A DNA stretch of 64,000 bases from an uncultured Ignavibacteria bacterium (GCA_903862655.1 CAIOZA010000072.1:3926-67925), one strand, 5' to 3'; positions 46,603 through 63,474 are shown, counted from the first letter of the stretch. The notes: a model not told the origin generated them from the letters alone. A program made the numbers and translations.

Positions 46603-46892
46603 TAATCCTGTCAACCGAAGCTTCCATCATTCCAGTACTTTCGCTCATTCTGAATTCCAAATTTAAATAAAAAATATAAATCCAAATCCAAATTCAGGAT
46701 TATCCTTACCAATGTGCACTTCTTCCTCTCTTCGTATTATTTACAGCTAAGGTTGAGATTCATAAATTTACCTAAATGTCTAACAGAATTAATTTTTGTT
46801 ATTAGGCAATTCTTCATTTGAAATTCGGAATAATTTTTCTTAATTTAAGTCCGCCTCAAATTAATAAATCAAAAATTTCGTTTCTTTATATG

Positions 46893-47633
46893 AATTTTAC
46901 TGGAAAAACTGCAATCGTTACGGGTGGATGCCGTGGTATAGGCAATTCGATTCTGATTAAGCTGGCTGAATTGGGTGCCGATATCGGTTTTGTCGATATT
47001 GTTCCTGTGACCGATGCTCAGTTTACAATTGATCAGGTGACCTCACTTGGTAGAAAATGTGAATTTTTTAAAGCCGATATATCCGATTTTTTGCAAGCTG
47101 CCAGTGCTATTAAGTACTTTCACGAGTTGTTCGGTCATATTGATATTCTTGTCAATAACGCAGGTGTTAACAAGGATTCAGTTATCTGGAAGATGACAGA
47201 GGATCAGTGGGACACTGTGATTAATATCAACCTAAAGGGATATTTCAATTATATCCATGCTGTGATTCCTTACTTCAAAGCACAAAACAGCGGTAAGATT
47301 GTCAATATTAGCTCTATCAACGGGATGCGCGGCAAGTTTGGTCAGTCCAATTATTCAGCTGCTAAAGCCGGAATTATTGGACTGACTAAGTCTATTGCCA
47401 AGGAGATGGGACGCTATTCGGTAAATGTGAATGCTGTTGCACCCGGATTGATTGAAACTGAGATGACAAGAAATCTACCGGAGGATGCACTGAAAGCAGC
47501 TCTTCAGGAAATCACACTGAACAGATTCGGTAAACCCGAGGATGTAGCCAATGTTGTAGCATTTTTATGCAGTGATTACTCATCGCACATCACTGGCGAG
47601 GTTATTAAAGTCGATGGCGGTCAATATATTTAA
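46893..47633 (+). CDS. Short-chain dehydrogenase/reductase (FabG / acetoacetyl-CoA reductase-like 3-oxoacyl reductase)
   Basis: TGGCRGIG (Rossmann), NNAG, S-Y-x3-K catalytic tetrad (SSINGM...YSAAKAG), PGLIET. Start moved to the internal Met (MNFTGKTAIVTGG). Confidence 0.85.
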   Translation, partial: NFTGKTAIVTGGCRGIGNSILIKLAELGADIGFVDIVPVTDAQFTIDQVTSLGRKCEFFKADISDFLQAASAIKYFHELFGHIDILVNNAGVNKDSVIWKMTEDQWDTVININLKGYFNYIHAVIPYFKAQNSGKIVNISSINGMRGKFGQSNYSAAKAGIIGLTKSIAKEMGRYSVNVNAVAPGLIETEMTRNLPEDALKAALQEITLNRFGKPEDVANVVAFLCSDYSSHITGEVIKVDGGQYI

Positions 47634-47682: not shown

Positions 47683-48873
47683 GTGAATCTTAGTGATATA
47701 GTTGTAATTTCTGCTGTCCGTACACCAATGGGCAAATTCGGCGGTTCTTTGCGTGGGATGTCCTCCTACGATATCGGAGCAGTTTCGGTTCGTGAAGCCG
47801 TTCGCCGCACTGGACTAAATCCAAATGTTATAGATAATGTAATATTAGGTAATTGCCGTCAGGCAGGGAATGGTCCGAATCCTGCACGTACCGCTGCAAT
47901 CAGGGGAGGAATAGGCCTTCCGGTTCCTGTGTTCACTGTTAATATGGCTTGTCCATCGGGAATGAAGACTCTCGAACTCGCATCCAATGCAATTCGCCTA
48001 AATAAATCTACCAATGTTCTTGTTGGCGGATTCGAGAGCATGAGCAATATCCCCTACCTGCTCAAGGGTGCACGCTGGGAAGGCTTCAAGATGGGCAACA
48101 AAACGCTTGAAGATGGCTGGAGCGATAGTATTGATCCGCTGATCGGCATGGGCATGGGTGAAACTGCTGAAAATTTAAACTCTAAATATAGTTTATCACG
48201 TGAGCTACAGGATGAATTTGCCGTTCAGAGCCACATAAAAGCAGCAGCAGCTCAGAGCAACGGTTGGTTTAATGATGAAATTGTACCTATTAACATTCCT
48301 GCTTCACATACTAATGCAGAAATAATATTCGATAAAGATGAAACCATTCGGTTTGATATAGATAAATCAAAAATAGCAAAGCTAAAACCTGTATTCCGTA
48401 AGGATGGAACTGTCACTGCGGCTAATTCTTGCGGGTTGAGCGATGGTTCTGCTTCAATGGTTGTTACTAGCCGAGCAAATGCGCTTAGTAATGGTATTAA
48501 ACCGCTGTTCTCGATTGTTGAATTCTCAGAGCTTGCAATTGATCCGGCATTCATGGGTGAGGGTCCTGTTTATTCGATTCCAAATGTGTTGTCGAAGGCC
48601 GGGATGACTCTCGACGATATCGATTTGATTGAGATAAATGAGGCTTTTGCCGTTCAAGTATTGTCTAATCAGCAAGCTCTGGGTTTTAATATGGATAAAT
48701 TGAATGTAAACGGTGGAGCGATTGCATTGGGGCATCCTACTGGTATTAGTGGTGCTAGGATAATAATTACATTGTATCATGCACTGTTAAGATTGGATAA
48801 AACGTTCGGACTTGCCTCTATATGCGGTGGTGGTGGTGTGAGTACATCGATTATTATTAAACGGGAATTTTAA
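47683..48873 (+). CDS. Acetyl-CoA C-acetyltransferase (thiolase II)
   Basis: GTG start. VNMACPSGMK (Cys nucleophile), NGGAIALGHP (His), GLASICGGGG (C-terminal Cys). Confidence 0.9.
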   Translation: MNLSDIVVISAVRTPMGKFGGSLRGMSSYDIGAVSVREAVRRTGLNPNVIDNVILGNCRQAGNGPNPARTAAIRGGIGLPVPVFTVNMACPSGMKTLELASNAIRLNKSTNVLVGGFESMSNIPYLLKGARWEGFKMGNKTLEDGWSDSIDPLIGMGMGETAENLNSKYSLSRELQDEFAVQSHIKAAAAQSNGWFNDEIVPINIPASHTNAEIIFDKDETIRFDIDKSKIAKLKPVFRKDGTVTAANSCGLSDGSASMVVTSRANALSNGIKPLFSIVEFSELAIDPAFMGEGPVYSIPNVLSKAGMTLDDIDLIEINEAFAVQVLSNQQALGFNMDKLNVNGGAIALGHPTGISGARIIITLYHALLRLDKTFGLASICGGGGVSTSIIIKREF

Positions 48874-49290
48874 AAATTATTTCAAAAATATTGGTTTTTT
48901 TAGCGAATTTTTGGTAATTTCATTTTGTTCTTTTTATTGTTTCTTTGAAAGAGTGATGGAAGCAAAAGTCACTCATCATTAATCTAAGTTTGGCAAATAA
49001 GCCATCTTTATCAATTCAAATATATTAGTTTCTTTATTGTTATTCTTTGCTGAGTTTATTCGTCTATATTTCATTACTTATGCCTTTGTTTTTTTTGATT
49101 ATTGACTAAATCCAACCCAAAATATTCGCAGCTTAGATCTGTATTTTTGGGAGAATATTTTTTTGTCTTAAATAATCTTCAAGTGGTATTATTATCGAAA
49201 GTAATAGGACTAAATTAGTTCCATTTTATTTTAAATGATTTGAATAATTATTAACAGTAAATATATTTACCTAATTTATAAGGAGTTTAA

Positions 49291-50418
49291 ATGATTGATA
49301 AATTTGTGCAATGGGAAAAAAATCGACATCAATATGCTAAAGACTGGAAGGCTAGGACTGGTGGCAAGGTTATGGGTTACTTTTGCACCTATGTTCCCGA
49401 AGAAATTCTTTATGCTGCAGATATATTGCCTGTTAGGATATTGGGAAGTCACGAACCTCACGATGTGACTGAAGCTCATATATTTGGAATGTATTGTCCA
49501 TTCAGCCGCGACTGCCTGGCTCAGGGATTGAAAGGACGCTATGACTATCTTGACGGCATTATGATTGCCCAGTCGTGTCTTCACATCAGGCAAGCATATA
49601 CAAGCTGGACCAAACACATACCGGTTGATTTCGAGTACTATCTGCCTATGCCAAATAACGTGCAGAGTCCTCATGCAACTCCATATCTAACTGAAGAAAT
49701 TACTCAGTTCAGAAAAGCCCTTGAAAAATGGATTGGAAGAGAGCTGACCGATGAAAATATCCAGAATGGCATTGATATAATGAACGAAAACCGTGCTCTT
49801 ATGCACGAACTATATACCTACAAAAAAAATGACAATCCACCTGTTTCCGGTGCTGACACTATGGAAATTGCAATTTCTCAGCAGATGGTTGACAAAAGAG
49901 AACACACTCAGGCATTAAAGGAATTGCTCGCAGAGCTTAGTGGAGGCAAATCATATTCTAAGAATTCAGGTACTCGATTGATGGTGCTTGGTAGCGAAAA
50001 CGACGATATCGCCTTTATTAAGATGGTAGAATCAGTTAATGGAACAGTCGTCGCTGACGATCACTGCATCGGAACACGCTACTTCTGGAATAACGTGAAA
50101 CCAAACGAAAATTTGGTAGAATCAATCGCTACAAGATATATTGAACGTCCGGCATGCCCAAGTAAGGACTGGATTGACAGAACCAGAATACCCCACATTC
50201 TCTCAATGGCTAAAGAATTTGATGTAAAGGGAGCTATTGTAATTCAGCAGAAGTTCTGCGATCCACATGAACTTGATATACCCGCGATTACAAAAGCATT
50301 GCAGGCTAATGATATCAAAACGTTGTTCCTCGAGTTCGATGTAACAGTGCCAATCGGTCAATTTAAAATCCGTGTTGAAGCATTCCTGGAAATGCTTCAA
50401 GAAGATGATTTATTCTAA
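49291..50418 (+). CDS. 2-hydroxyacyl-CoA dehydratase / class-I benzoyl-CoA reductase family, small catalytic subunit (HgdB/BcrC/BzdN-like)
   Basis: AAGGAG RBS. N-terminal GYFCTYVPEEILYAADILPVRILG typical of this family. 375 aa. Confidence 0.8.
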   Translation: MIDKFVQWEKNRHQYAKDWKARTGGKVMGYFCTYVPEEILYAADILPVRILGSHEPHDVTEAHIFGMYCPFSRDCLAQGLKGRYDYLDGIMIAQSCLHIRQAYTSWTKHIPVDFEYYLPMPNNVQSPHATPYLTEEITQFRKALEKWIGRELTDENIQNGIDIMNENRALMHELYTYKKNDNPPVSGADTMEIAISQQMVDKREHTQALKELLAELSGGKSYSKNSGTRLMVLGSENDDIAFIKMVESVNGTVVADDHCIGTRYFWNNVKPNENLVESIATRYIERPACPSKDWIDRTRIPHILSMAKEFDVKGAIVIQQKFCDPHELDIPAITKALQANDIKTLFLEFDVTVPIGQFKIRVEAFLEMLQEDDLF

Positions 50419-50433
50419 TTAGAAAGGAAAATA

Positions 50434-51738
50434 ATGTCTATACCTACTTATAAAACTGAAACTTTAAAATGCTGGAATAAAGCTAAAGAAATTCGTAATG
50501 ATTTCTATACAAATTATGCAAGTGCTCATGAAAAAGGCGGATTGAGATGGGCTGGTGGTGCGTGGAGCTTTGGAGCTATCCCCGCCGGACTCGGAAATGA
50601 TATCTTCCCCATCACCGGAGAACCATACGGAGCAAGCATTGCATTCAATAAAGAATTTTCTTTGCGTTGCCTCGAAGCAACTGAAAAAAAAGGTTATGCA
50701 CGCGATCTTTGTTCATACATGCGCTCATATTGGGGATCAATCATCCTTGATGAATATGCTTTTGGCGGAAAGTTTCCAAAACCTGATTTTATGTGGCAGG
50801 ATCATATTTGCTGCAGTCATTCCAAATGGTATCAGGTCGCTTCTGAATTGGAAGGTGGAATACCAACGTACAGCATAGATGTTGCAGTTGGTCCATACAA
50901 TAGTGTTTCTGATAGTAAAATTGAGTATTTAGTCAATCAGATGCACGACGGGATTGAATGGCTCAAGAAAACAACAGGTAGAGAATATAACGATGATCTT
51001 CTCATCGAAGCTGTAAATAACGAATGTCGCGCAACAGCTCTGTGGGCTGAGATTTGCCTTTTGAATATGACCGTACCAACTCCAATTGACGAAAAGAGTA
51101 TGTACTCTCTATATGTTCTCGGAACATTAGAAAAACACTCAAAGGTCGTCGCAGACTTTTATGAGGAACTTCTTGATGAAGTAAAATACAGAGTCGCAAA
51201 TGGAATTGGTGCAATTGCACACGAAAGATGCAGATTGATGTCAGATACACAGCCACCTTGGGGATTTCTCAGCGTATTCAGATATCTCGAAAAATTTGGA
51301 GCTGTATCCGTTGGTTCACTTTATACATTTGGATTGATTGGTGTTTGGGAAGATAAGCCCGATGGTACATGGGGACCTCGCACCACACCCAAGGAATTAG
51401 GTATAGATATCACAACCCGCGATCAGGCTTTGAAAATTCTCGCCGACTGGAATCTCAGCAAACCAGAGTGGCAACACTTCTACTCACCACACCTGAAAAG
51501 CGATATGATGATTAAAATCGCCAAGCAATGGAAGATCGACGGTGTGTTACTTCACTACAACCGCGGTTGTGAAGGTCTATCCCTCGGTATTGCTGAAAAT
51601 CGTCTTGCATTGATTGAAGCTGGATATCCTGTTATGGCTTTCGAAGGTAACATGGGCGATGAACGTGAATTCGATGAAGCTAAAACAATGGGCAGAATTG
51701 ATTCCTTTATGGAAACATTGGGAATGACCATTATTTAA
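50434..51738 (+). CDS. 2-hydroxyacyl-CoA dehydratase / benzoyl-CoA reductase family, large catalytic subunit (HgdA/BcrB/BzdO-like)
   Basis: [25 protein letters not shown] motif. 434 aa. Confidence 0.8.
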
Positions 51739-51764
51739 TTTTCAAATTTTAAAAGGAGCTTAAT

Positions 51765-52526
51765 ATGATAAATGTTGGAATAGATGTCGGGGCTAAGAAT
51801 ATTAAAATCGTTATTGTCAATGGACAGGAAATAATCGCCAAAGGCAAGGTCCTGTCTGGTTTTGAAACTAAGGAAACAGTTATGGCTTTATACGATCAAC
51901 TTCTTGGCGAAGCAAATGTGACTAAAGATCAGATTAATCTGATAACTTCAACCGGTAGCGGAAGAAAAGCCGTGGACTTTGCACAAAAGAGCGTTACTGA
52001 AGTTACAGCTGCTGCTAAGGGAGCTACAACTCTCTATCCTAATGTACATTGCGTTATTGATGTCGGTGCCGAAGAAGGAAGATCTATTCGAGTCGATTCA
52101 AACGGGAAGATTGTCGATTTCGCATTGAATGAGAAATGCGCAGCCGGTGCAGGTGCTTTTATCGAATCGATGGCACGTGCTCTTGAGGTATCCATAGAAG
52201 ATTTTGGTATGCTTTCCCTTCAGTCCGACAGGGAAATTCCTATGAATGCTCAGTGTGCCGTATTTGCAGAATCTGAAGTAGTATCGCTTCTGCACTCCAA
52301 AACGGATAAAAAAGATATAGCAAAAGCTGTCAACGATGCTGTTGCCTCTCGTATCACATCGATGACACGTAAGGTTGGATTCGAAAACGATATAGAGCTC
52401 ATCGGCGGTATGGCTAAGAATACAGGGTTCATCAATGCCTTAAAAAAAGGACTCGACTCTGAAATTATTGTCCCTGAAAACGCAGAATACGTCACTGCTT
52501 TCGGTGCCGCTATTTATAATGATTAA
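51765..52526 (+). CDS. CoA-substrate-specific enzyme activase (HgdC/BcrD/BadG-type ASKHA ATPase with bridging [4Fe-4S])
   Basis: Aligns along its length with Acidaminococcus HgdC: GIDVG...TGSGR, NEKCAAGAGAF, VFAESEVVS, GGMAKNTG. 253 aa. Confidence 0.9.
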   Translation: MINVGIDVGAKNIKIVIVNGQEIIAKGKVLSGFETKETVMALYDQLLGEANVTKDQINLITSTGSGRKAVDFAQKSVTEVTAAAKGATTLYPNVHCVIDVGAEEGRSIRVDSNGKIVDFALNEKCAAGAGAFIESMARALEVSIEDFGMLSLQSDREIPMNAQCAVFAESEVVSLLHSKTDKKDIAKAVNDAVASRITSMTRKVGFENDIELIGGMAKNTGFINALKKGLDSEIIVPENAEYVTAFGAAIYND

Positions 52527-52562
52527 AAATATATTTATTTCAAATAAAATTGGAGGTTTTTA

Positions 52563-53429
52563 ATGGCTAAAGAATTCTGGCGTTGGAAAGAATATAATTG
52601 GAAAAGCGAAACAATAGATTGGAAAGATGGTAACACTGTATCTTGTGGTATTGATGTTGGTTCAGTTAGTTCTCAGGCAGTCATCCTCGTAGATGGCGAA
52701 TTATATGCCTATTCAAGTATGCGTACCGGATCTGACAGCCCTATGAGTGCAACTAATGCAATGAATTGGGCTTTGGAAGATACAGGTATGACTCAGGATA
52801 ATGTCCATTACGTTGTCGGTACTGGTTATGGAAGAGTTAATGTTCCATTTGCTAACAAAACTATTACTGAAATTGCATGCCATGCCAGAGGAGCTAATCT
52901 GATGTATGGCAATACTGTTCGCACAATCCTCGATATGGGTGGACAGGATTGTAAAGCCATTCGTTGCGATGAAAAAGGTAAAGTTACTAACTTTTTAATG
53001 AATGACAAATGTGCAGCAGGAACCGGGCGTGGTATGGAAGTATTTGCAGATCTGCTCTCGATTCCAATCGAAGATGTGGGTGAATTATCCTTCCAGGTCG
53101 ATGAAGAGCCACCTCCCGTCAGCAGCACTTGTGTCGTTTTTGCTAAAACAGAAGCAACAGGACTTCTTCGCGAAGGTTGGCCCAAGAATAAAGTTATAGC
53201 TGCTTACTGTTCCGCTATGTCCCATAGAGTGGTCACTTTGCTTCAGCGTATTGGCGTTGAAAGTGATTTCGTTATTACCGGCGGAATTGGAAAGAATGTT
53301 GGAATAGTCCGCAGATTATCACAGGAACTTGGTTTCGAAACACTCAAAACTAACTATGATTCACAGATCGCCGGTGCTTTGGGTGCCGCATTGTTTGGAA
53401 GAGCTCTTGCAGAAAAAGCTAGAAATTAA
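52563..53429 (+). CDS. Second, distinct activase-type ATPase (BcrA/BzdQ/BadF-like partner)
   Basis: GIDVGSVSSQ, NDKCAAGTGRG, VFAKTEATG, GGIGKNVG. Paralog of the preceding gene with an approx. 25-aa N-terminal extension. Confidence 0.85.
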   Translation: MAKEFWRWKEYNWKSETIDWKDGNTVSCGIDVGSVSSQAVILVDGELYAYSSMRTGSDSPMSATNAMNWALEDTGMTQDNVHYVVGTGYGRVNVPFANKTITEIACHARGANLMYGNTVRTILDMGGQDCKAIRCDEKGKVTNFLMNDKCAAGTGRGMEVFADLLSIPIEDVGELSFQVDEEPPPVSSTCVVFAKTEATGLLREGWPKNKVIAAYCSAMSHRVVTLLQRIGVESDFVITGGIGKNVGIVRRLSQELGFETLKTNYDSQIAGALGAALFGRALAEKARN

Positions 53430-53457
53430 AAATTTGATATAAATTGAGATAAATATC

Positions 53458-53745
53458 ATGATTGCAAATTTTGGATACAAAGACGGATCAGGGGATTTCT
53501 ATATTAGTATCGATACCGATAAGTGCAATGGATGCGGTGATTGCATTCCTGCATGTCCCGTTGGTCTGTTGCAGATACGGGAGAATGAATATGATCCTAT
53601 GGCCGATGACAATATGGTAGTAGTACTCGAAGAGCATAGAAAGAAAATTAAATATTCATGTGCTCCTTGCAAAAATGAAGGTAAAGATAGTATCTTACCT
53701 TGTGTTAAGGTATGTCTGCCTAATGCAATTACACATTCCTGGTAA
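53458..53745 (+). CDS. Ferredoxin ([4Fe-4S] Cys cluster protein)
   Basis: CNGCGDCIPACP canonical 4Fe-4S motif plus a second Cys group CAPC...C...C. 95 aa. Confidence 0.7.
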   Translation: MIANFGYKDGSGDFYISIDTDKCNGCGDCIPACPVGLLQIRENEYDPMADDNMVVVLEEHRKKIKYSCAPCKNEGKDSILPCVKVCLPNAITHSW

Positions 53746-53760
53746 TTATTAGGGATTTAA

Positions 53761-56322
53761 ATGGATAAAATATCATTAAAGATAAATGGAATTGATTTGA
53801 CAGTCGATTCAGGTACAACTGTCTTAAATGCCGCTCGCAATGCCGGTGTATTTATACCCGTATTGTGCAGCCATCCTGATTTTGGATCATTCCAGACAAT
53901 CCAGTTGAGTGATTTCATTTATCAGGGTAACAACCGTATTGAAAGCGATCCAGACGCTGATATTACAAAATTACGTGGTTGTGGCATTTGTCTCGTTGCT
54001 GATGAAAATAATAATACTTTGATTCCTGCTTGTAAAGCTGTTGTTGAAGACGGAATGGCAATTCAGACAGATTCTGAAGTAATTAAGAAAAAGCGTCAGG
54101 AAAATCTTGCTGTAATTCTTAGCACACATCCTCATTCCTGCCTCACATGCAGCCAGCATGAAGGATGTATTCCAATGACAGATACATGTGCGGGGAATGT
54201 AAATACAATTGATCGCTGCTGCGCTTTGCTTAACAGATGTGAGATTCAGAAAATTGCAGATTATGTTGGTATTCCTGGGGAAACACAAAGATACATTCAC
54301 GGAAATCTACCTGTGGTTGATGATGATCCATTGTACAAAATTGATTACAATCTCTGTATCTCGTGCGGACGTTGTGTTCGTGTATGTCAGCAGGTAAAGG
54401 GTGTTTTCGCACTCGGAGCCGTTATTAAGGCTGGCAAACTGTTGATTGGCACTAGCGGTGGTCCTGGATTCAACTCTGCAGAATGTAAATTCTGCGGCTC
54501 CTGTGTGGAGGTATGCCCCACGGGATCATTGATGGATAAACGAGTCTACCGTCTTAAAGATGTTAATGAATTTGTTCCTTGTCGTGCCAATTGCCCGGGA
54601 GATGTAGATATACCTCAGTATCTGCGTCTTGTCTCCGAAAATAAACTTGACGAGGCGGCAGAAGTTATTGCTTCCAGACTTACTTTCCCATCAGTATTAG
54701 GCAAGGTATGTTTCCATCCTTGCGAAAGTACATGTAAACGTAATGAAGTCTCTGAGATTCTCAATGAGAATAAAGAAGCAGTTAATATTCGCATGATCAA
54801 GGATTATGCTATGACCTACGGTCATCTTCAAAAAGTTGAAAAACCATCCTATACATCAGGAAAAAAAGTATCTGTTATCGGTGCCGGTCCTGCCGGATTG
54901 ACTGCGTCTTATATCCTTGCTATGAAAGGGCATGCTGTTACTCTTTATGAGAAAGAGGATAAATTAGGCGGAATGCTGCGTTACGGGATTCCACGTTACC
55001 GTCTCCCAGGTGAGATATTGGACAAAGATCTCGATCGGTTGATGGAATCAGGCATGCAGGTTGTCACTGGTAAAACCTTTGGAAAAGATATCACTTTTTC
55101 TGATTTGAAAAATAACGGTAGTGATGCAGTCTTTATAGCAACCGGACTGTCAAAAAGCCGAAAACTCCCGTCTGATGGAGCTTCTAATGCAAATGTTATT
55201 GATGGGATGGATTTTCTGAACGATCTGAATAAGAACAATCTTGATTTGAATTATTTTGAGAACCAAACTGTTGTTATTATTGGTGGTGGTAACGTAGCCA
55301 CTGATGCTGCTAGATGTGCTGTTAGACTAAAAGCTAAGAAAGTAAGGATTATTTGTCTGGAGTCCAACAGTGAGATGCCTGCTTATCCGGAAGAAATAAA
55401 AGAAGCAAAGGAAGAAGGAATAATAATCAAGAATGGCTGGGGAGTTAATTCCATTGCTGACATTGGTAATTCGGAATTAGAAATCAATTTAAAGAAATGT
55501 ACTTCAGTTTTTAATGATACCGGGGCATTTTCTCCATCATTCAATGAATCTGTTAGTGAATCTGTAACGTGTAATAAAATTATTACCTGTATCGGGCAAC
55601 AATCAGATCCGATAGTGGCTAATGATGAGCAGATCAATAAACTCATTCATCATGGTTTAATCAAAGTAAATTCTGAAACTCTTCAGACCGACATCAGAGG
55701 ACTTTATGCAGGTGGAGATTTTGTTTCGGGTCCGGCATCAGTTATTGATGCTGTCGGAGCCGGACGAAAGGCTGCCATTTCTATTGATGTTTTCCTGGGT
55801 GGGGATGGCAATATCGAATTCAATCAAAATCTTGATGATTCATTTGATATGTTCATCGGACGTGAGGAAGGTTTCAACAAGCTGAACAGAATGTATGCCG
55901 AACTGATTGATCCTGATCAACGAGTAGACTCCTTTGTCGGAGTTGAGCAGACTTTAAATGAAAACAATGCATTGTGCGAGGCTAGCCGTTGTCTCCAATG
56001 CGATCTAAGAATGAAGCTTGGGCACAATCCAATGCCGCCTGAGAAATATATTAAATTTCATCCTGAATTTATTTCTGTTGTACCCGATATGGCAGGTGTA
56101 ATTCAGCTTCTCGATGACAAAAAGGAAGTCTTCTTTATTAAGGGAAGCGATAATCTAAAGCAATTTATACAAGAATTGCTCGATGATGGAAAAGAAGCTT
56201 CATACTTTATTTATGAAGAAGAACCTATGTACACAAAGAGAGAAAGCGAACTTTTACAGCAATATCTGCAGAAACATGGCAAAATGCCAGATGCAGGTGA
56301 CGATTTGGATGATTTGTTTTAA
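53761..56322 (+). CDS. Multidomain flavo-iron-sulfur oxidoreductase: NuoG/FdhA-like N-terminal [2Fe-2S]+[4Fe-4S] domain fused to GltD/NfnB-like NAD(P)H-dependent FAD subunit, with approx. 150-aa C-terminal extension
   Basis: 2Fe-2S ferredoxin-like start (LCSHPDF...CGICLV). His-ligated cluster HPHSCLTCSQHEGC. Two 4Fe-4S motifs CISCGRCVRVC and CKFCGSCVEVCP. GltD-type CRANCPGD / CFHPCESTC. Dinucleotide fold VSVIGAGPAGLTAS and second GGGNVATDAAR. Confidence 0.8.
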   Translation: MDKISLKINGIDLTVDSGTTVLNAARNAGVFIPVLCSHPDFGSFQTIQLSDFIYQGNNRIESDPDADITKLRGCGICLVADENNNTLIPACKAVVEDGMAIQTDSEVIKKKRQENLAVILSTHPHSCLTCSQHEGCIPMTDTCAGNVNTIDRCCALLNRCEIQKIADYVGIPGETQRYIHGNLPVVDDDPLYKIDYNLCISCGRCVRVCQQVKGVFALGAVIKAGKLLIGTSGGPGFNSAECKFCGSCVEVCPTGSLMDKRVYRLKDVNEFVPCRANCPGDVDIPQYLRLVSENKLDEAAEVIASRLTFPSVLGKVCFHPCESTCKRNEVSEILNENKEAVNIRMIKDYAMTYGHLQKVEKPSYTSGKKVSVIGAGPAGLTASYILAMKGHAVTLYEKEDKLGGMLRYGIPRYRLPGEILDKDLDRLMESGMQVVTGKTFGKDITFSDLKNNGSDAVFIATGLSKSRKLPSDGASNANVIDGMDFLNDLNKNNLDLNYFENQTVVIIGGGNVATDAARCAVRLKAKKVRIICLESNSEMPAYPEEIKEAKEEGIIIKNGWGVNSIADIGNSELEINLKKCTSVFNDTGAFSPSFNESVSESVTCNKIITCIGQQSDPIVANDEQINKLIHHGLIKVNSETLQTDIRGLYAGGDFVSGPASVIDAVGAGRKAAISIDVFLGGDGNIEFNQNLDDSFDMFIGREEGFNKLNRMYAELIDPDQRVDSFVGVEQTLNENNALCEASRCLQCDLRMKLGHNPMPPEKYIKFHPEFISVVPDMAGVIQLLDDKKEVFFIKGSDNLKQFIQELLDDGKEASYFIYEEEPMYTKRESELLQQYLQKHGKMPDAGDDLDDLF

Positions 56323-56334
56323 GAGGTTAATTTT

Positions 56335-56541
56335 ATGAATGAAATAATATTCAATGAGTCCGAATGGACAAGAAGAAATGTTGCCGAGGAACCGCGTTTG
56401 ACCGAATTGGTCGATCTATACACCGAATTGGGATTCGAGGTCTATCTGAAGGAAGTTGGCAAGGAAGAATGTCCATCTGACGACTGCACAACATGTTTGA
56501 TGGCTAGCCCCGATAAGTACAAGGTTATTTTTACAAGATAA
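56335..56541 (+). CDS. Small hypothetical protein (68 aa, Cys-containing)
   Basis: AAGAGG RBS 8 nt upstream. CPSDDCTTC. Sandwiched between the oxidoreductase and the acyl-CoA synthetase. Confidence 0.35.
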   Translation: MNEIIFNESEWTRRNVAEEPRLTELVDLYTELGFEVYLKEVGKEECPSDDCTTCLMASPDKYKVIFTR

Positions 56542-56567: not shown

Positions 56568-58643
56568 ATGCTTCAATCATTATTCGAACCGAGATCTGTT
56601 GCTATTATCGGAGCTTCAACGAAAGAATTGTCTATCGGTAATGTGATTATCAAAAATCTGCAAAAATTTAATTTTACAGGAAATATATACCCAATTAATC
56701 CAAAAGCACCTGATGTTCGCGGAATCAAAGCCTATAAAACGATTTCTGATGTACCTGAAGATATCGATGTTGTTCACTTGGTTATTCCCCCAGATAGAGT
56801 ACCTGATGCAATAGAAGAATGTGGCAGGGTGGGAGTTAAAAATGTTATCATCAATACTGCCGGATTTAAAGAAATGGGCGAGCATGGAGCTGCATTACAA
56901 AATGATTTTGTCGCCCGTGGTAAGAAATATGGCGTTAGAATGTTTGGTCCTAATTGTCAGGGTATAATCAATACAGATCCAGAATTTAATGCTTATTGTG
57001 ACTTTACTTTTACTTATCCAAAGCCCGGAAATATTTCAATTGTGGCTCAGAGTGGGGGAGTCGGAGCTGTTATTATGCAGAATATCTTCGATCTCGATGT
57101 CGGAATGCGAATGTATGCTTCCAATGGAAACGCCTGCGATATCTCGATACCCGAAATAATTAAATATTGGGGAGATGATGACGAGACTAAGGTTATCATA
57201 CTCTATATCGAAAGCCTTGATGATCCTGGTTATTTTATGGATGTTGCCAGAGAAGTTGCGGCTAAGAAGCCAATCCTGGCGATGAATGCGGGTAGAACAC
57301 TTGAAGGAGCTAAAGCCGCTACATCTCATACCGGCGGTCTTGCCGGAGGAATTGTAACAGATCTGATTTTCAAAAAAACCGGAATCTTATCATTCAAAGA
57401 TACTCAGGAAATGTGTCAGGCAGCTATCGCATTCGCGGCTCAGCCGATTCCACGTGGTAAACGTGTTGGGATGATTACCAACACCGGAGGTCCGGCAATC
57501 ATTGCTACTGATGAACTTGTCGATGGTGGACTCGAAATTCCCGAACTTTCAGCAAAAGCCGAAGAAGTTCTGAAAAAGACTATGTTTGCATCTGCATCGA
57601 TTAACAATCCGATTGATGTTGTCGCTACTGCTGGCGCACCTGAGTTCAGAAGTGCACTGGATGTGATGATGAACGAAGAACAGATTGATAGTATTTATAT
57701 AAATTTTGTAACACCGCCTTTTGTGGACTGCGAAAGTGTAGCAAAAGAATTTGCTGAGGTGTCATCTAAACGCATTAAACCTATTGTCTGCAATTATATG
57801 ACTGATAAAGCTCAGTGGGTTGAAACAACAAAGATTCTGAGCGATGGCGGAATTCCTTTCTATGATTTCCCTGGCACGGCAGCCAAAGCTCTTGTCGCTC
57901 TTACCAAATACTATGAATTAAAATCCAGAGATAAAGGAACCATACCTGATTTTAAAGATATTAATGCCGATGCTGTTAGTGCAATCATAAGTAAAGCCAA
58001 GGCAGAAGGACGTGAAATTCTTTCATCTTTTGAAGTTTATGCAATTCTAGATTATTATAATATTCCAACTTCGGAGTGGTTCATTGCCGAGAACAAAGCC
58101 GATGCTATGCTCGGAGCCGAGAAAATTGGTTATCCGTTAGTGCTAAAAGCTGACGCACCGGAGCTTGTGCACAAAAGCGATGCAGGCGGTGTGGTTCTAA
58201 ATCTGGCAAGTGCTATTGCTTTCTCCTCTGCTGTGGCTCAAATGTCACAGAAATTCAGTGATATCAAGCATAATTATTTCATACAGAAATTCATGCCGGG
58301 TGGAAAGGAACTCATTATCGGTGCTAAATCTGAAAAAGGTGTTGGGCACATGATTATGTTCGGTATGGGCGGCATTTATGTAGAAGTTTTAAAGGATGTG
58401 TGTTTTGAACTTGCTCCTATTAGTGATACAGAAGCTCTTGAGATGATTACTTCAATCAAAATGTACCCGATTATCAAGGGTGTGCGCGGTGAGAAAGGTT
58501 TGAATATTCAATCAATTATGGATGTTATACTCAAAATCTCGAAGCTTGTTCAAAATCATCCTGAAATTTTGGAACTTGATTTGAATCCTGTCATGGCTTT
58601 TGAAAACTCTGTGGCAGTCGTTGACGCAAGAATTAAAATATAA
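56568..58643 (+). CDS. ADP-forming acyl-CoA synthetase (NDP-forming, fused alpha/beta: CoA-binding + ligase-CoA + ATP-grasp)
   Basis: N-terminal PRSVAIIGAS...NIYPINP CoA-binding fold, GPNCQGI, catalytic-His region SHTGGLAG, C-terminal ATP-grasp_5 (GYPLVLKADAPELVHKSDAGGV). 691 aa. Confidence 0.85.
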   Translation: MLQSLFEPRSVAIIGASTKELSIGNVIIKNLQKFNFTGNIYPINPKAPDVRGIKAYKTISDVPEDIDVVHLVIPPDRVPDAIEECGRVGVKNVIINTAGFKEMGEHGAALQNDFVARGKKYGVRMFGPNCQGIINTDPEFNAYCDFTFTYPKPGNISIVAQSGGVGAVIMQNIFDLDVGMRMYASNGNACDISIPEIIKYWGDDDETKVIILYIESLDDPGYFMDVAREVAAKKPILAMNAGRTLEGAKAATSHTGGLAGGIVTDLIFKKTGILSFKDTQEMCQAAIAFAAQPIPRGKRVGMITNTGGPAIIATDELVDGGLEIPELSAKAEEVLKKTMFASASINNPIDVVATAGAPEFRSALDVMMNEEQIDSIYINFVTPPFVDCESVAKEFAEVSSKRIKPIVCNYMTDKAQWVETTKILSDGGIPFYDFPGTAAKALVALTKYYELKSRDKGTIPDFKDINADAVSAIISKAKAEGREILSSFEVYAILDYYNIPTSEWFIAENKADAMLGAEKIGYPLVLKADAPELVHKSDAGGVVLNLASAIAFSSAVAQMSQKFSDIKHNYFIQKFMPGGKELIIGAKSEKGVGHMIMFGMGGIYVEVLKDVCFELAPISDTEALEMITSIKMYPIIKGVRGEKGLNIQSIMDVILKISKLVQNHPEILELDLNPVMAFENSVAVVDARIKI

Positions 58644-58668
58644 AATTAACAATAAATTAGTAAACAAT

Positions 58669-59868
58669 ATGCATAAAATTGAATCAGCAAAACTCTTAAA
58701 ACAGGTAATGACAGACTATTTCATTGGTCTGGGGAATAAAGAAAAGAAAATTGCCTGGTGCACAAGTGTTGGTCCGGCAGAACTTCTCAGGAGTTTTGGC
58801 TTTGAGGTCTATTTTCCGGAAAATCATGGAGCTCTTCTCGGGACAGCAAGACTCTCGGGTGAGTTCATTCCGGTAGCGGCAAAACTTGGTTATTCCAGCG
58901 AAATATGCTCGTATTTGACAAGTGATATTGGGTCTTATTTGAGCAAGAATACTCCTATGACCAAGCATTACGGCTTAGAGTCTGTTCCCAAACCTGATCT
59001 GCTTGTTTATAATACCAATCAGTGCCGTGAGGTTCAGGACTGGATGATGTTTTATGCAAATGAATTTAAGTGTCCAATCCTTGGCATTCAGTCACCACGT
59101 TATCTCGATGAAGTTAAGACTTCAGATATTGATAATGTTACTGCTCAATTCAAAGCAATGATTCCTACTTGCGAGGATGTTACAGGTCTCAAATTCGATT
59201 TGGATAAATTTAAAGCAACCCTAAAGATAAGTAAGGAAGCAACTCTGCTGTGGAAGCAATGCTTAGAAACTGCCCGTAATGTCCCTGCACCTATTTCATT
59301 CTTCGACAGTACAATCCACATGGGTCCAATAGTAGTTCTTCGTGGTACTGAAGTTGCTAAATCGTATTATGAAGCTTTATTATCTGAGTTGAACACTCAT
59401 GTTCAAGCTGGCTCAGGAATTCTTGAAAACGAAAAAGTTCGCGTGTATTGGGAAGGAATGCCAATCTGGGGCAAACTGCGTTATAGTTCAGACTTATTCT
59501 CAAGTCACAACGCCGCTGTTGTAGCATCAACATATTGTAACAGCTGGATATTCGACGATTTCGATGAAGATCATCCATTCGAATCATCAGCTCTGGCTTA
59601 TTCAACAATCTTCATTAATATGAGCGAAGCTACAAAAACAAATAGAATGATTAAACTAATTGAAGAATATCAGATTAAAGGCGTTGTTTTTCATGAAGCA
59701 AAAACCTGCTTCAATAATTCAAATTCATCGTTCGGAATGCCTCAAAGACTCAAAGAAGCAACAGGTGTTGAAACACTTGTCATCGAAGGCGATCTCTGCG
59801 ACTTGAGATTCTTTTCTGAAGCACAAACCACAACTAAAATTGAAACATTTATTGAACAAATTCTTTGA
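58669..59868 (+). CDS. Third 2-hydroxyacyl-CoA dehydratase-family subunit (HgdB-like, orphan)
   Basis: KIAWCTSVGPAELLRSFGFEVYFPENHGA and EICSYLTSD motifs. Start moved to ATG 58669 (MHKIESAKLL) to avoid overlapping the upstream gene. Confidence 0.75.
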   Translation: MHKIESAKLLKQVMTDYFIGLGNKEKKIAWCTSVGPAELLRSFGFEVYFPENHGALLGTARLSGEFIPVAAKLGYSSEICSYLTSDIGSYLSKNTPMTKHYGLESVPKPDLLVYNTNQCREVQDWMMFYANEFKCPILGIQSPRYLDEVKTSDIDNVTAQFKAMIPTCEDVTGLKFDLDKFKATLKISKEATLLWKQCLETARNVPAPISFFDSTIHMGPIVVLRGTEVAKSYYEALLSELNTHVQAGSGILENEKVRVYWEGMPIWGKLRYSSDLFSSHNAAVVASTYCNSWIFDDFDEDHPFESSALAYSTIFINMSEATKTNRMIKLIEEYQIKGVVFHEAKTCFNNSNSSFGMPQRLKEATGVETLVIEGDLCDLRFFSEAQTTTKIETFIEQIL

Positions 59869-60827
59869 TTCTTATGGATGATAAAAAGTTAAAAATTGGC
59901 GTAATTGGCATGGGGTCAATCGGATTAGTTCTTGCCGTTACTCTTCAGGAAGCCGGATGCGAGGTTGTGGTCTGTGATTACGACAAAGAAAAAATGAACA
60001 GGATACGCAATGAAGGCATTAAGATCATCGGTGCTTTTAATAAAACCTGCTTCTTTGATTATAATTATACATCGGTAGCCGATCTTCTGGAGCATGATGT
60101 CGATATTCTCATAAGTGCTGTCAAGTCCTATCGAGTAGATCTGTTGCTGGATCAGATAGAACATTACAGCCATAACGGCATGTATCTTCTCTGTGCACAG
60201 AACGGAATAGACATCGGATTGAAATATATAAGCCACTTCAACGAATCTCAGATCCTGAGAATGGTTATTAATTTTGCTGGTGTGCTCAATGCACCCAATG
60301 TTTCGAGTGTTACTTTCTTCGAACCACCGAACTATATAGCTTCAATAAATGATGCTCATCCGGAAGTATCAGCAAAACTGGCCGATCTGATGACAAAAGG
60401 CGGGATGCAAACTGATAGCATTGATTCATTCACTATCACCAATCATGTTTGGGCAAAAACTATTCTTATCGCGTCTATCAGCCCGCTGTGCGGAATATCC
60501 AATCTTGTAATCAATGAAGCGCTCAAAAATCCTGATACTATGGAAATCGTCGAAGGAATAATCATGGAATCCCTGGAAGTGGCTAAAGCCGAAGGGATCA
60601 ACCTCGGGGCGAATATTTCAAAACATCTTCTGCGCAGTTTAAAAAATTCCGGAAGTCATCTCCCTTCAATTGCCGTTGATATGTTGAATGGACGTGAGAC
60701 TGAGATTGATTATATTAATGGAAAAATTGTGGAATTTGGAAGAAAACATTACATCCAAACTCCATTAAATCTTATTTTTACTAATTTAGTTAAAGCAATA
60801 ACCAAGAAGAACATGGGGTTACATTGA
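59865..60827 (+). CDS. Ketopantoate-reductase-family (ApbA/PanE) NAD(P)H-dependent 2-oxoacid reductase
   Basis: KIGVIGMGSIGLVLA Rossmann. C-terminal SIAVDMLNGRETEIDYINGKIV (PanE signature). Alternative start ATG 59874. Confidence 0.8.
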   Translation: MILMDDKKLKIGVIGMGSIGLVLAVTLQEAGCEVVVCDYDKEKMNRIRNEGIKIIGAFNKTCFFDYNYTSVADLLEHDVDILISAVKSYRVDLLLDQIEHYSHNGMYLLCAQNGIDIGLKYISHFNESQILRMVINFAGVLNAPNVSSVTFFEPPNYIASINDAHPEVSAKLADLMTKGGMQTDSIDSFTITNHVWAKTILIASISPLCGISNLVINEALKNPDTMEIVEGIIMESLEVAKAEGINLGANISKHLLRSLKNSGSHLPSIAVDMLNGRETEIDYINGKIVEFGRKHYIQTPLNLIFTNLVKAITKKNMGLH

Positions 60828-61912
60828 ACATTAAAATACCCCAACATATTATAGACCTCAAGCCCTACGTGCCGGGCAAGCCAATAGAAGAACTCCAAAA
60901 AGAATTTGGATTCGAAAGAGTCGTTAAACTTGCTTCAAACGAGAATCCGATTGGAGTGTCTCCTTTAGCTATTCAGGCAATGTTCAGTGCTATATACCAG
61001 CTCAACCGTTATCCCGATATTGCCAGTTTGATGCTCAGGCAAAAATTATCAGAATTCTTCAGTATACCATCGGAGAATATAGTAACTGGACATGGTTCAG
61101 AAGCCATCATACAGACTGTAATAAGAGCATTCGTTGCCGACGATGAAGAAGTCCTGACCGTGAACGGCACTTTCGTCGGATTTTATGTTATTTCGAGAGC
61201 TCGCGGTATAAAGATGAATCTTATCCCACTGAAGGAGTACCATTTCGATCTTATGGCTCTGGCAGAGGCTATCACTCCAAAAACAAAAGTAATTTATCTT
61301 GTCAATCCTAATAATCCTACTGGCACCATATTCTCTAAAACTGAGTTCGATGAATTTCTTAAGGTTGTTCCTGATAATATCATTGTCATTGTCGATGAAG
61401 CATATTTTGAATTTGTTAAGGATAATCCTTTGTTCCCGAACACCATGGAATATAAGCAGGATAATATCATAACTCTTCGTTCATTTTCTAAGGCTTATGG
61501 ATTAGCCGGAATCCGCTTGGGTTATGGGTTTGCTAATGCTGAACTTGTCTCCTATATGCTCAAAGTGAGGTTGCCATTTGAACCTGGGATACCATCTCAG
61601 GCTGCCGGCATTGCTGCTTTGATGGATACCCAGTTTTTGGAGTATTATCTGAGCCTTAACCGGCAGGGTAAAGAATTTATCTACAGTTTATATGATGAAC
61701 TTGGTATTCACTATATAAAAACAGAAGCAAACTTCATCATGAGCGTTTTCGAATCTGAAGAGCGTGTGAATGAAATTAATGAAAAATTACTTCGTAAAGG
61801 TGTTATCATCCGTCCTCTCAAACCATTCGGATTGCCGCATTGCTTGAGAGTAACCATAGGGACCCCGGAAGAAAACGAAATTTTTGCGAAACATTTGAAA
61901 TCTATATTTTAA
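60824..61912 (+). CDS. Class-II (HisC-family) pyridoxal-phosphate aminotransferase
   Basis: TTG start overlapping the previous stop. IDLKPYVPGKP, LASNENP, PLP-Lys region RSFSKAYGLAGIRLGY. Confidence 0.8.
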   Translation: MNIKIPQHIIDLKPYVPGKPIEELQKEFGFERVVKLASNENPIGVSPLAIQAMFSAIYQLNRYPDIASLMLRQKLSEFFSIPSENIVTGHGSEAIIQTVIRAFVADDEEVLTVNGTFVGFYVISRARGIKMNLIPLKEYHFDLMALAEAITPKTKVIYLVNPNNPTGTIFSKTEFDEFLKVVPDNIIVIVDEAYFEFVKDNPLFPNTMEYKQDNIITLRSFSKAYGLAGIRLGYGFANAELVSYMLKVRLPFEPGIPSQAAGIAALMDTQFLEYYLSLNRQGKEFIYSLYDELGIHYIKTEANFIMSVFESEERVNEINEKLLRKGVIIRPLKPFGLPHCLRVTIGTPEENEIFAKHLKSIF

Positions 61913-62900: not shown

Positions 62901-63474
62901 AGGTATTGCCTGCGTTATTCTTTCCGCCGGTCAATCAAGGCGGATGGGTACCCATAAAGCACTGCTGAAGTTTAATGAGAATCTGAGATTTATTGACAGA
63001 ATTATAGAAGTTTATAAAAATTTTGGAATTACTGAAGTTATTGTCGTAGCAGGCGAATCTTTGAAAAATGAACTGAATGTTGCATCTGATGTGAAGATTG
63101 TTACTAATCAGCATCCCGAGTTTGAGAGGTTTTATTCTGTCAAGCTTGCTTGTGAGGCTCTTAGCCGTGAAGTTGAATTGTGTTTCTTGCAGAATTGCGA
63201 CAATCCTTTTGTTAATGAAGAATTGTTAGAGAATATGATTAATCTGCCTGAAGAATCAGATTGTGCTGTGCCTGTTTATATGAATCAAGGTGGACATCCG
63301 GTTTTGATCAATAAAACGATAATTGAATATATCCAGTCAATCGACGGAAAAAATTCAAATCTGAAGGATATTCTTTCAAAATTCAGAACAATGAAGATTA
63401 TCACAAATGATGAAACAGTTAAGATAAATATCAATTCACCTGAAGAATATGAGAAATACTTTATAAATAAATGA
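62884..63474 (+). CDS. MobA/MocA-like molybdenum-cofactor nucleotidyltransferase
   Basis: GIACVILSAGQSRRMG (NTP_transf_3 N-terminal motif). 196 aa. Confidence 0.75.
   Translation: MKKGLKGIACVILSAGQSRRMGTHKALLKFNENLRFIDRIIEVYKNFGITEVIVVAGESLKNELNVASDVKIVTNQHPEFERFYSVKLACEALSREVELCFLQNCDNPFVNEELLENMINLPEESDCAVPVYMNQGGHPVLINKTIIEYIQSIDGKNSNLKDILSKFRTMKIITNDETVKININSPEEYEKYFINK

Follow-up and report, generated by a model that had tools for sequence, protein, structure and literature searches.

A probable Bzd-type class I benzoyl-CoA reductase, its putative electron-supplying proteins, and an adjoining accessory gene module in an uncultured Ignavibacteria bacterium

Introduction

The closest described counterpart of the system reported here is the Bzd-type benzoyl-CoA reductase (BCR) of the denitrifying betaproteobacterium Aromatoleum (Azoarcus) sp. 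CIB, encoded by bzdNOPQ together with bzdM and bzdV. In the known bzd cluster, bzdQ is followed by bzdM, which codes for a ferredoxin, and by bzdV, which codes for a 'putative NADPH:ferredoxin oxidoreductase' (PMC5658619, PMC5736913). The solved structures of Aromatoleum BzdNO (PDB 8S02/8S1T/8S2R; Fuchs et al. 2025, PMC11971306) identified Cys36, Cys73, Cys100, Cys263, Cys293, and Cys327 as ligands of an [8Fe-9S] cluster in BzdN. In BzdO, they revealed a [4Fe-4S]-OH2 cluster held by Cys95, Cys128, and Cys380, the acid/base pair Glu65 and His131, a benzoyl pocket formed by Trp46, Tyr97, Leu302, and Leu383, and the thioester hydrogen-bond donors Tyr97, Tyr298, and Gln274 (PMC11971306). The mechanism known for the family is a hydrogen-atom transfer to C4 followed by transfer of an electron and the proton of Glu65, and the association between dimers of the Bzd type is predicted to be no more than transient (PMC11971306). 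Here, we describe a locus with the same gene order at positions 49291 to 53745 of a 64,000-nt stretch of DNA (the window) from an uncultured Ignavibacteria bacterium (GCA_903862655.1 CAIOZA010000072.1:3926-67925); the source contig has 88.5 kb and extends past the end of the window.

Three further systems serve for comparison. The BCRs BcrCBAD/BadDEFG and the 3-methylbenzoyl-CoA reductase MbdONQP (PDB 9G87/9GAI) have the four-subunit architecture of the system of the window and the ATP coupling, ferredoxin donor, and reaction class that are predicted for it, whereas the sequence similarity is remote (BcrC 140/421, BcrB 52/487, MbdO 60, and MbdN 111 bits). The 2-hydroxyisocaproyl-CoA dehydratase HadBC of Clostridioides difficile with its activator HadI (PDB 3O3M, 4EHT) belongs to the same superfamily and carries in the alpha subunit a [4Fe-4S] cluster with an open coordination site; HadI is an ATPase of the ASKHA fold with a bridging cluster, as is predicted for the ATPases of the window. 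The HadB-like protein of the window is a lone HGD-D protein of 399 amino acids (aa) without a HadC-like partner or a CoA-transferase. Double-cubane cluster proteins (DCCPs; PDB 6ENO/7YYL) have the six-cysteine [8Fe-9S] site in common with BzdN; they are homodimers with one ATPase, whereas the window encodes a heterodimer and two ATPases.

The locus and the Aromatoleum cluster agree in the order N, O, P, Q, ferredoxin, and putative NAD(P)H-type ferredoxin reductase, in subunit sizes, and in the cluster ligands, the Glu65/His131 pair, and, save for Ser44, the benzoyl/thioester pocket. They differ in sequence (54-61% identity, the environmental clade having the fixed exchanges Ser44 -> Gly and Thr125 -> Asp) and in the host, which is a bacterium of the FCB group. 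Where Aromatoleum has the AMP-forming ligase encoded by bzdA, none of this type is in view and an ADP-forming acyl-CoA synthetase (ACD) is encoded. The ring-opening genes do not adjoin the cluster, whereas bzdWXY of Aromatoleum are contiguous with bzdQ/M.

Results

Assignment of the catalytic subunits

With family membership, cofactor ligands, substrate pocket, and synteny as observed below, we read the locus as encoding a genuine Bzd-type class I BCR together with its electron supply, at a probability of roughly 0.85. The family call was made by contrasting bit scores against curated NCBIfam equivalog models and against solved PDB chains. The model cut-offs were passed by BzdN (TIGR03190, 502.4 vs 453.8 bits), BzdO (TIGR03191, 668.8 vs 448.6), and BzdQ (TIGR03192, 451.3 vs 380.2). 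Membership in the Thauera/Rhodopseudomonas-type BCRs was rejected because all four model scores fell far below the cut-offs: the catalytic pair reached 139.5 of 421 with the BcrC model (TIGR02263) and 52.5 of 487 with the BcrB model (TIGR02260), and the scores with TIGR02259 and TIGR02261 were 154 of 578 at best and 120 of 313, respectively. In a positive control, the BcrCBAD genes of a related marine locus (L167) passed three of these four models. (L-numbers are labels of the related loci and contigs compared with the window.) Assignment to the DCCPs was likewise rejected, as the corresponding model (NF040772) gave 193 of 350 for BzdN and 41 for BzdO, and the catalytic pair is heterodimeric.

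The comparison with solved structures gave the same picture. Full-length alignments were obtained with Aromatoleum sp. CIB BzdO (8s02_A, 650 bits) and BzdN (8s02_B, 475 bits), and the computed identities were 60.8% for BzdO and 53.9% for BzdN. The window O/N subunits scored 99/160 bits with the HadB/HadC chains and 60/111 bits with MbdO/MbdN. Because the solved BzdNO far outscores the HadBC and MbdON chains, the pair is by sequence of the Bzd type, and neither a dehydratase nor a Thauera-type reductase. BzdN is predicted to be the electron-transfer subunit carrying the [8Fe-9S] double-cubane cluster. Catalysis would fall to BzdO, in which the [4Fe-4S]-OH2 cluster and the binding site of benzoyl-CoA are expected. 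An earlier interpretation made from this DNA alone (the sequence-only reading) had proposed a class I BCR rather than a dehydratase, with a phylogeny as the check; at the level of the family, the equivalog scores and the PDB contrasts answer that question and bear the proposal out.

The alternative of a 2-hydroxyacyl-CoA dehydratase of the HgdAB/HadBC/FldBC kind with two activator paralogues could appeal to a superfamily that is common (PF06050, PF01869), to the first, 253-aa ATPase, which matches HadI slightly better (180 bits) than MbdQ (177 bits) in the PDB search, and to the PanE-like reductases and the aminotransferase downstream, which are usual companions of dehydratases. These companions are, however, tied to a different gene, that of the lone HGD-D protein. 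The catalytic pair reached only 185 of 700 with the HadC model and 131 of 750 with the HadB model, two distinct ATPases are present, and no CoA-transferase is found among the neighbours. Moreover, BzdN keeps the six double-cubane cysteines that 2-hydroxyacyl-CoA dehydratases lack (PMC11971306). The equivalog scores and the [8Fe-9S] ligand set effectively refute this alternative, and hardly any weight is left to it.

Cofactor ligands and substrate pocket

For a check of individual residues, the PDB sequences were rebuilt from the alignments and compared in a joint alignment with their counterparts of the window and with homologues from the related loci, 54 of BzdN and 67 of BzdO. All six cluster cysteines of BzdN are kept in the window protein and in 54/54 homologues. 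In BzdO, Cys95, Cys128, and Cys380 as well as Glu65 and His131 are kept in the window and in 67/67 homologues, so that the nine conserved cluster cysteines, six in BzdN and three in BzdO, are complete. Trp46, Tyr97, Gln274, Tyr298, Leu302, and Leu383 of BzdO are equally present in the window and in all 67 homologues. The second-shell residues Ala45, Gln124, Ser130, Glu381, and Gly382 are invariant in the window and the homologues, and Ile127 is Ile in the window and Val in 3/67 homologues. Besides the nine cluster cysteines, 12 of 14 further catalytic, pocket, and second-shell residues are kept, the exceptions being Ser44 and Thr125.

ATPases and electron supply

The two ATPases are 31.6% identical to each other, and both bridging cysteines (in NxKCAAGxG and xxxC[AV]VFA) are present in both of them, with NAQCAVFAESE and SSTCVVFAKTE, one per ATPase, as the second motif. 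Neither protein is therefore the degenerate paralogue without cluster cysteines that had earlier been considered for the second ATPase. BzdQ has canonical ASKHA phosphate motifs, its sequences DMGGQDCK, NDKCAAGTG, and SSTCVVFAKTE being of the canonical form, and a protein identical to it is named 'bzd-type benzoyl-CoA reductase Q subunit' by JGI. The 253-aa ATPase in the BzdP position passed the generic activase domain model TIGR00241 (208 bits vs 125); among its NCBIfam results there was no match to a BzdP-specific equivalog model. Its phmmer matches to transcription activator-like (TAL) effectors, although low in whole-sequence E-value, were discarded as a composition artefact with no significant aligned stretch.

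The 95-aa ferredoxin that follows contains the motifs CxxCxxCxxxCP and CxxC-x10-C-x3-CP, the second with a 10-residue insertion; a PDB search returned no close solved relative. For counts of gene context, the open reading frames (ORFs) of 82 loci were clustered, and the ferredoxin gene directly follows that of the second ATPase in 40 of them. The next gene codes for an 853-aa protein. Its N-terminal part contains 2Fe-2S and NuoG/HydA-type 4Fe-4S domains, its C-terminal part is an FAD/NAD(P)H module resembling NfnB and GltD, and NfnB-type modules of the PDB match the protein at 287-327 bits. A homologue of it follows the ferredoxin in 58/82 loci across phyla, and by analogy with the known cluster the protein would be the ferredoxin-reducing partner in the role of BzdV. 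KorAB, the 2-oxoacid:ferredoxin oxidoreductase, was not found in the 64-kb window by tblastn; KorAB-like enzymes recur as neighbours in related loci. Between the flavoprotein and the downstream genes lies an ORF of 68 aa with three clustered cysteines (Table 1), publicly named hypothetical and without a Pfam or NCBIfam match. The flavoprotein gene is directly followed by a homologous ORF of about 70 aa in at least 13 loci, which belong to several phyla.

By homology to the characterized systems, the mechanism at this locus may be envisaged as follows. The 853-aa NfnB/GltD-like flavoprotein would reduce the 95-aa dicluster ferredoxin, probably with NAD(P)H, and the reduced ferredoxin would pass its electron to the [4Fe-4S] cluster between the two ATPases, BzdP and BzdQ, of the heterodimer. 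With the hydrolysis of ATP, the potential of the electron would then fall, and the electron would move on to the [8Fe-9S] double cubane of BzdN. At the [4Fe-4S]-OH2 cluster of BzdO, a hydrogen atom would be transferred to C4 of benzoyl-CoA, and a further electron together with a proton from Glu65 would give cyclohexa-1,5-diene-1-carbonyl-CoA. The direction of electron flow, NAD(P)H as donor, co-transcription of the genes, and the physiological substrate are inferred.

Substrate of the reductase and the ring-opening genes

Several observations weigh against a conventional Bzd-type BCR. One of the seven residues of the benzoyl/thioester pocket, the other six being invariant, is exchanged throughout the clade: Ser44 is Gly in the window and in 67/67 homologues. 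Near the active site, Thr125 of BzdO is Asp in the window and in 66/67 homologues. In the BzdP-position ATPase, DVGAEEGR replaces the canonical phosphate-2 motif DxGGQDxK; the variant is kept in 39/45 P-type homologues and so belongs to the conserved features of this paralogue rather than marking its decay, and it suggests an asymmetric ATPase heterodimer. The putative correspondence to BzdM and BzdV is drawn from position, domain content, and co-conservation. The identity to the only characterized BzdNO is moderate (61%/54%), and there is no assay of any member of the clade, nor of a BzdNOPQ complex with all four subunits, whatever the organism (PMC11971306). Finally, tblastn searches of the 64-kb window gave no homologue of the ring-opening enzymes Dch (dienoyl-CoA hydratase), Had (hydroxyacyl-CoA dehydrogenase), and Oah (ring hydrolase), which correspond to BzdW, BzdX, and BzdY, and none of an AMP-forming benzoate-CoA ligase, and the presence of Dch, Had, and Oah in this genome is deduced from its relatives rather than seen.

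Part of these observations could be taken to mean that the enzyme is a BCR-like reductase of another substrate, such as a benzoyl-CoA with substituents or hydroxyl groups or a CoA ester of heteroaromatic or alicyclic type, acting in an undescribed pathway. In the solved structure, Ser44 is 3.6-4.0 Å from ring C3 and among the groups nearest to it, and the clade-wide Ser44 -> Gly exchange could, together with Thr125 -> Asp, enlarge the pocket near C3. The distance in sequence to the characterized enzyme, the lack of Dch, Had, and Oah genes in the window, and the acceptance of substituted analogues by class I BCRs of the MBR type (MBR is mentioned in PMC11971306) point the same way. Against this, there is no variation in any of the remaining residues in contact with the cluster, the thioester, or the benzoyl ring, and the scores exceed the curated equivalog cut-offs. 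In relatives with the same cluster, moreover, bona fide Oah and Had are encoded, enzymes that convert the reduction products of unsubstituted benzoyl-CoA. The adjoining 4-hydroxybenzoyl-CoA reductase (4-HBCR)-like enzyme described below would yield benzoyl-CoA itself. We regard a different substrate as improbable; at the sequence level, Ser44 -> Gly is the only reason that keeps it alive, and with this exchange beside ring C3 the clade departs from the one solved enzyme in a concrete feature of structure and function.

The lack of ring-opening genes is most likely an effect of the window edge. The window closes with a MocA-like gene and a truncated xdhC-like gene (Table 1), and in sister contigs 92-95% identical to the window the MocA-like gene precedes XdhC and a molybdenum (Mo) enzyme. 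Past the position of the window end, these contigs (L083, 16904-22076) continue with XdhC, a 4-HBCR-like FAD subunit (293 aa), and a fused Fe2S2/Mo subunit (933 aa), followed by a third BcrAD ATPase (255 aa). The Mo subunit is a fused gamma-alpha protein resembling 4-HBCR (TIGR03194, 936-947 bits vs a cut-off of 994.55). A further contig (L166; 80% nucleotide identity) agrees with this gene order, starting at the 68-aa ORF, and its third ATPase is followed by an ORF 88% identical to the zinc-dependent alcohol dehydrogenase (Zn-ADH) of L165. L165 (985-12552), the closest relative to extend further, with a Mo subunit 89% identical to that of the sister strain, carries after the Mo enzyme an ATPase, Had (449 vs a cut-off of 339), Oah (585 vs 464), a Dch-like protein, a thiolase, and a 694-aa protein containing an enoyl-CoA hydratase (ECH) domain. 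The same long order is found in L138 and L151. In the close relatives L003, L004, L006, L008, and L009, the genes for Oah and the Dch-like protein instead directly precede the cluster and are encoded on the other strand. Oah/BamA of related loci passes TIGR03200 (599 vs 464), the Dch-like crotonases have TIGR03189 as their top match at 209-224 bits, below the cut-off of 292, and the Zn-ADH of L016 is a weak Had match (190 of 339). Downstream of the Mo enzyme the arrangement is not the same everywhere, with Had or Oah within five ORFs in only 13 of 50 informative metagenome loci. The window-edge explanation follows from the nearest relatives, which continue into the Mo enzyme, the third ATPase, and then Had, Oah, and the Dch-like gene.

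The sequence-only reading had noted that Dch, Had, and Oah are absent from the neighbourhood, which is literally true for the 64 kb searched by tblastn. Its use of this absence as the mark of another pathway is not supported, as relatives with the same cluster carry Oah, Dch-like, and Had genes nearby. Its further claim of an orphan enzyme with an uncharacterized substrate finds no support, given the equivalog cut-offs passed by N, O, and Q, a pocket kept except for Ser44, and public records, in which the PGAP and JGI pipelines already name these proteins 'bzd-type benzoyl-CoA reductase'. The BCR of the window is conventional, a member of a known, widespread, and already automatically annotated family.

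Organization and integrity of the locus

The five core ORFs were recovered with exactly the coordinates and lengths first reported for them (Table 1), all on the plus strand and separated by gaps of 15-36 nt. The Pfam E-values of the first four range from 1e-44 to 1e-83. The motifs initially picked out are real (GYFCTYVPEE in the 375-aa protein, DLCSY in the 434-aa protein, and CAAG in both ATPases), and the presence of two distinct ATPases and a dedicated ferredoxin was borne out, the gene order being bzdNOPQ-fdx.

Table 1. Features of the locus and its surroundings, with positions counted from the first nucleotide of the window
Feature	Position	Strand	Length, domains, and scores
SDR-family oxidoreductase (SDR, short-chain dehydrogenase/reductase)	46818-47633	+	TTG start; adh_short and FabG-like NCBIfam matches below cut-off
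Thiolase (acetyl-CoA C-acyltransferase)	47683-48873	+	TIGR01930 425.6 vs 240.55
Intergenic region, AT-rich	48874-49290	.	417 nt; AAGGAG ribosome-binding site 8 nt before the bzdN ATG
bzdN	49291-50418	+	375 aa; Pfam HGD-D
bzdO	50434-51738	+	434 aa; Pfam HGD-D
BzdP-position ATPase (ASKHA fold), predicted partner of BzdQ in the electron-activating dimer	51765-52526	+	253 aa; BcrAD_BadFG (PF01869)
BzdQ ATPase, predicted other half of the electron-activating dimer	52563-53429	+	288 aa; BcrAD_BadFG
Dicluster ferredoxin, BzdM position	53458-53745	+	95 aa; Pfam 4Fe-4S dicluster, Fer4
Fe-S flavoprotein, BzdV position	53761-56322	+	853 aa; Pfam Fer2_4, Fer4, Fer4_20, Pyr_redox_2
Conserved small protein	56335-56541	+	68 aa; three clustered Cys (ECPSDDCTTC)
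ADP-forming acyl-CoA synthetase (ACD), fused alpha-beta	56568-58643	+	Pfam CoA_binding, Succ_CoA_lig, ATP-grasp_5
Lone alpha-type HGD-D subunit, HadB/BcrB-like	58669-59868	+	399 aa; PF06050
PanE/ApbA-family NAD(P)H reductase, copy 1	59865-60827	+	TIGR00745 164 vs 141; Pfam ApbA, ApbA_C
HisC-family pyridoxal phosphate-dependent aminotransferase	60824-61912	+	TIGR01141 313.6 vs 276.55
PanE/ApbA-family reductase, copy 2	61935-62900	+	54% identical to copy 1
MocA-like molybdenum-cofactor cytidylyltransferase	62884-63474	+	PF12804; TIGR03310 98 bits
XdhC-family maturation factor, cut by the window end	63471-64000	+	NF045664 and TIGR02964 matches

The same intact ORFs occur in colinear order in two independent contigs that stem from other samples, L083 with 93.4% nucleotide identity across 17.2 kb and L084 with 94.6% across 14.9 kb. 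They exclude the assembly chimera or frameshift that had been considered at the outset. The G+C content of the cluster region (46.8-64 kb) is 0.393 vs 0.348 in the rest of the window (1-46500), and BzdO is 73-75% identical to copies in metagenome-assembled genomes (MAGs) of Thermoplasmatota and Methanobacteriota (L041, L070); both are consistent with a horizontal spread of the cluster. From the same two observations it might be argued that the locus is a chimera or a decaying, non-functional remnant of horizontal acquisition. All ORFs are, however, intact with short gaps or overlaps, the two colinear contigs show 93-95% nucleotide identity, and the functional residues are invariant, which makes such a remnant very improbable.

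The 417-nt region upstream of bzdN is the probable promoter or regulatory region of the operon. Scans of the sequence for sigma-70 promoters (53 sites vs 55 expected) and terminators (11 vs 12.2 expected) gave results at chance level. Between 49291 and the end of the window, neighbouring genes either overlap or lie a short distance apart, which suggests co-transcription. The co-directional array runs from the SDR and the thiolase through the BCR core, the ACD, the lone HGD-D protein, PanE, HisC, the second PanE, and MocA to XdhC, and by synteny it would continue with the 4-HBCR-like Mo enzyme, the third ATPase, and then Had, Oah, and the Dch-like gene.

The SDR is likely to start at position 46890, giving the 247-aa form called in public records. 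It is a candidate for a 3-hydroxyacyl-CoA or Had-like dehydrogenase of the benzoyl-CoA pathway, and the thiolase probably serves beta-oxidation in the lower pathway. Both genes together lie upstream of bzdN in 22 loci. In L060, an SDR gene stands between Oah-like and Dch-like genes, and in L021 (KSB1) a single co-directional array encodes Oah-like, SDR, thiolase, Dch-like, BzdN, BzdO, BzdP, BzdQ, and a homologue of the 853-aa protein, an arrangement that suggests ring-opening or lower-pathway roles for the SDR and thiolase of the window. The locus is probably part of an anaerobic aromatic-degradation island.

The accessory module downstream

The best NCBIfam match of the fused ACD is 4-hydroxybutyrate-CoA ligase, at 532 bits with a cut-off of 1300. 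The lone HGD-D protein scored 212 bits with the HadB model and 157 with the BcrB model, both far below cut-off, and 170 bits with HadB of the PDB; its three cluster cysteines align. A beta-type partner is not adjacent in the window or in any relative. Its homologues, 66-99% identical, bear only the public name '2-hydroxyacyl-CoA dehydratase family protein', and those with 66-70% identity are widespread in Bacteroidota. Pentatricopeptide-repeat (PPR) matches of this protein in phmmer (58600-59868) had low whole-sequence E-values but contained no significant aligned stretch and were dismissed as a composition artefact. The first PanE/ApbA copy is a candidate 2-oxoacid reductase, and a PanE-like gene also follows the lone HGD-D gene in relatives.

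A module of ACD, lone HGD-D protein, PanE-like reductase, and an ATPase of its own recurs in Bacteroidota. It adjoins a Bzd-type BCR in the window, in L003-L015, and in L138 and L151. The third ATPase stands beside the lone HGD-D gene in L007, L010, L011, L014, L015, L138, and L151, and after the Mo enzyme in the sister contigs. In marine Bacteroidetes MAGs (L167-L169), the genes for ACD, HGD-D, PanE-like protein, and ATPase directly follow a Thauera-type BcrCBAD, which in L167 reached 456 vs 421 with TIGR02263, 638 vs 486 with TIGR02260, and 325 vs 313 with TIGR02261. L170 and L171 have the module with no BCR in view and a partly disrupted ACD, and in L167-L171 caprolactamase/acetophenone-carboxylase-like genes come after it. 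Because the module adjoins both BCR types, it appears to be tied functionally to benzoyl-CoA metabolism rather than being a chance neighbour.

What the module does can be proposed only tentatively. A possible but doubtful interpretation of its gene content is an undescribed peripheral pathway from aromatic amino acids to (4-hydroxy)benzoyl-CoA that would feed the BCR. The route would lead from an aromatic amino acid via aryl-pyruvate, aryl-lactate, and aryl-lactyl-CoA to cinnamoyl-CoA or 4-coumaroyl-CoA, from which beta-oxidation by the SDR/HCDH-ECH (HCDH, hydroxyacyl-CoA dehydrogenase) and the thiolase would lead to benzoyl-CoA or its 4-hydroxy derivative. The adjoining 4-HBCR-like Mo enzyme would remove the hydroxyl group of the derivative, and both products would feed the BCR. 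Alternatively, the ACD may serve an ATP-saving activation of benzoate or substrate-level phosphorylation from acetyl-CoA. A phenyllactyl-CoA route to benzoyl-CoA figures in the literature only as a hypothesis (PMC13416013). If the proposal were true, it would introduce two novelties, a 2-hydroxyacyl-CoA dehydratase that is a homodimer of a single subunit and an oxidative route from phenyllactate to benzoyl-CoA. The module is a candidate for an unrecognized entry into the benzoyl-CoA pathway for aromatic amino acids or 2-oxo acids. The claim of the sequence-only reading that the genes up to position 64000 form an undescribed pathway is not supported: the core represents the known benzoyl-CoA pathway with a 4-HBCR-like enzyme, and only the ACD, lone HGD-D, PanE, and HisC genes are not explained by it.

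Distribution

A protein search returned 1,738 BzdO homologues, the best 120 of which are 72-100% identical. Several of them bear the PGAP or JGI name 'benzoyl-CoA reductase, bzd-type, subunit O', in MAGs of Kapabacteria, Ignavibacteria, Bacteroidetes, KSB1, Planctomycetes, Acidobacteriota, and Glassbacteria. In a scan with one genome per species, at least 576 stretches encode a BzdO relative; the best 80 of these are 71-85% identical and come from at least 10 phyla, two archaeal MAGs among them. The core of BzdN, BzdO, two ATPases, ferredoxin, and the protein of about 850 aa is present in about 58 of the 82 clustered loci, from many phyla. Class I bzd-type genes of uncultured lineages have been reported earlier, for example, in Chloroflexi (PMC5736913).

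The hosts are mostly uncultivated members of the Bacteroidota, Planctomycetota, Gemmatimonadota, Acidobacteriota, Aminicenantes, and others, with BzdO proteins 71-86% identical to that of the window. Class I enzymes belong, according to the textbooks, to facultative anaerobes. A Bzd-type class I BCR with a fixed set of partners, namely a ferredoxin and an NfnB/GltD-like flavoprotein, across several hundred species bears on this statement.

Host and further genes of the window

An FCB-group host, as first suggested from the DNA, fits the nearest named BzdO relatives, which are MAGs of Kapabacteria, Ignavibacteria, and Bacteroidetes with 81-86% identity and the same synteny. The accompanying description of the host as bearing a type IX secretion system finds among the scanned ORFs a single point of support, an OmpA-like protein (13402-15078, minus strand) with a weak match to PorE (140 bits vs a cut-off of 600). 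The proteins encoded at 28645-31185 (846 aa) and 31601-32968 (455 aa) had no NCBIfam match at E <= 1e-10. At 24548-25972, a 474-aa leucine-rich-repeat (LRR) protein is encoded whose best NCBIfam matches, none of which reaches its cut-off, are the LRR regions of the Xanthomonas type III effectors XopAC, XopL, and XopAE; a generic surface protein with LRRs is the probable identity.

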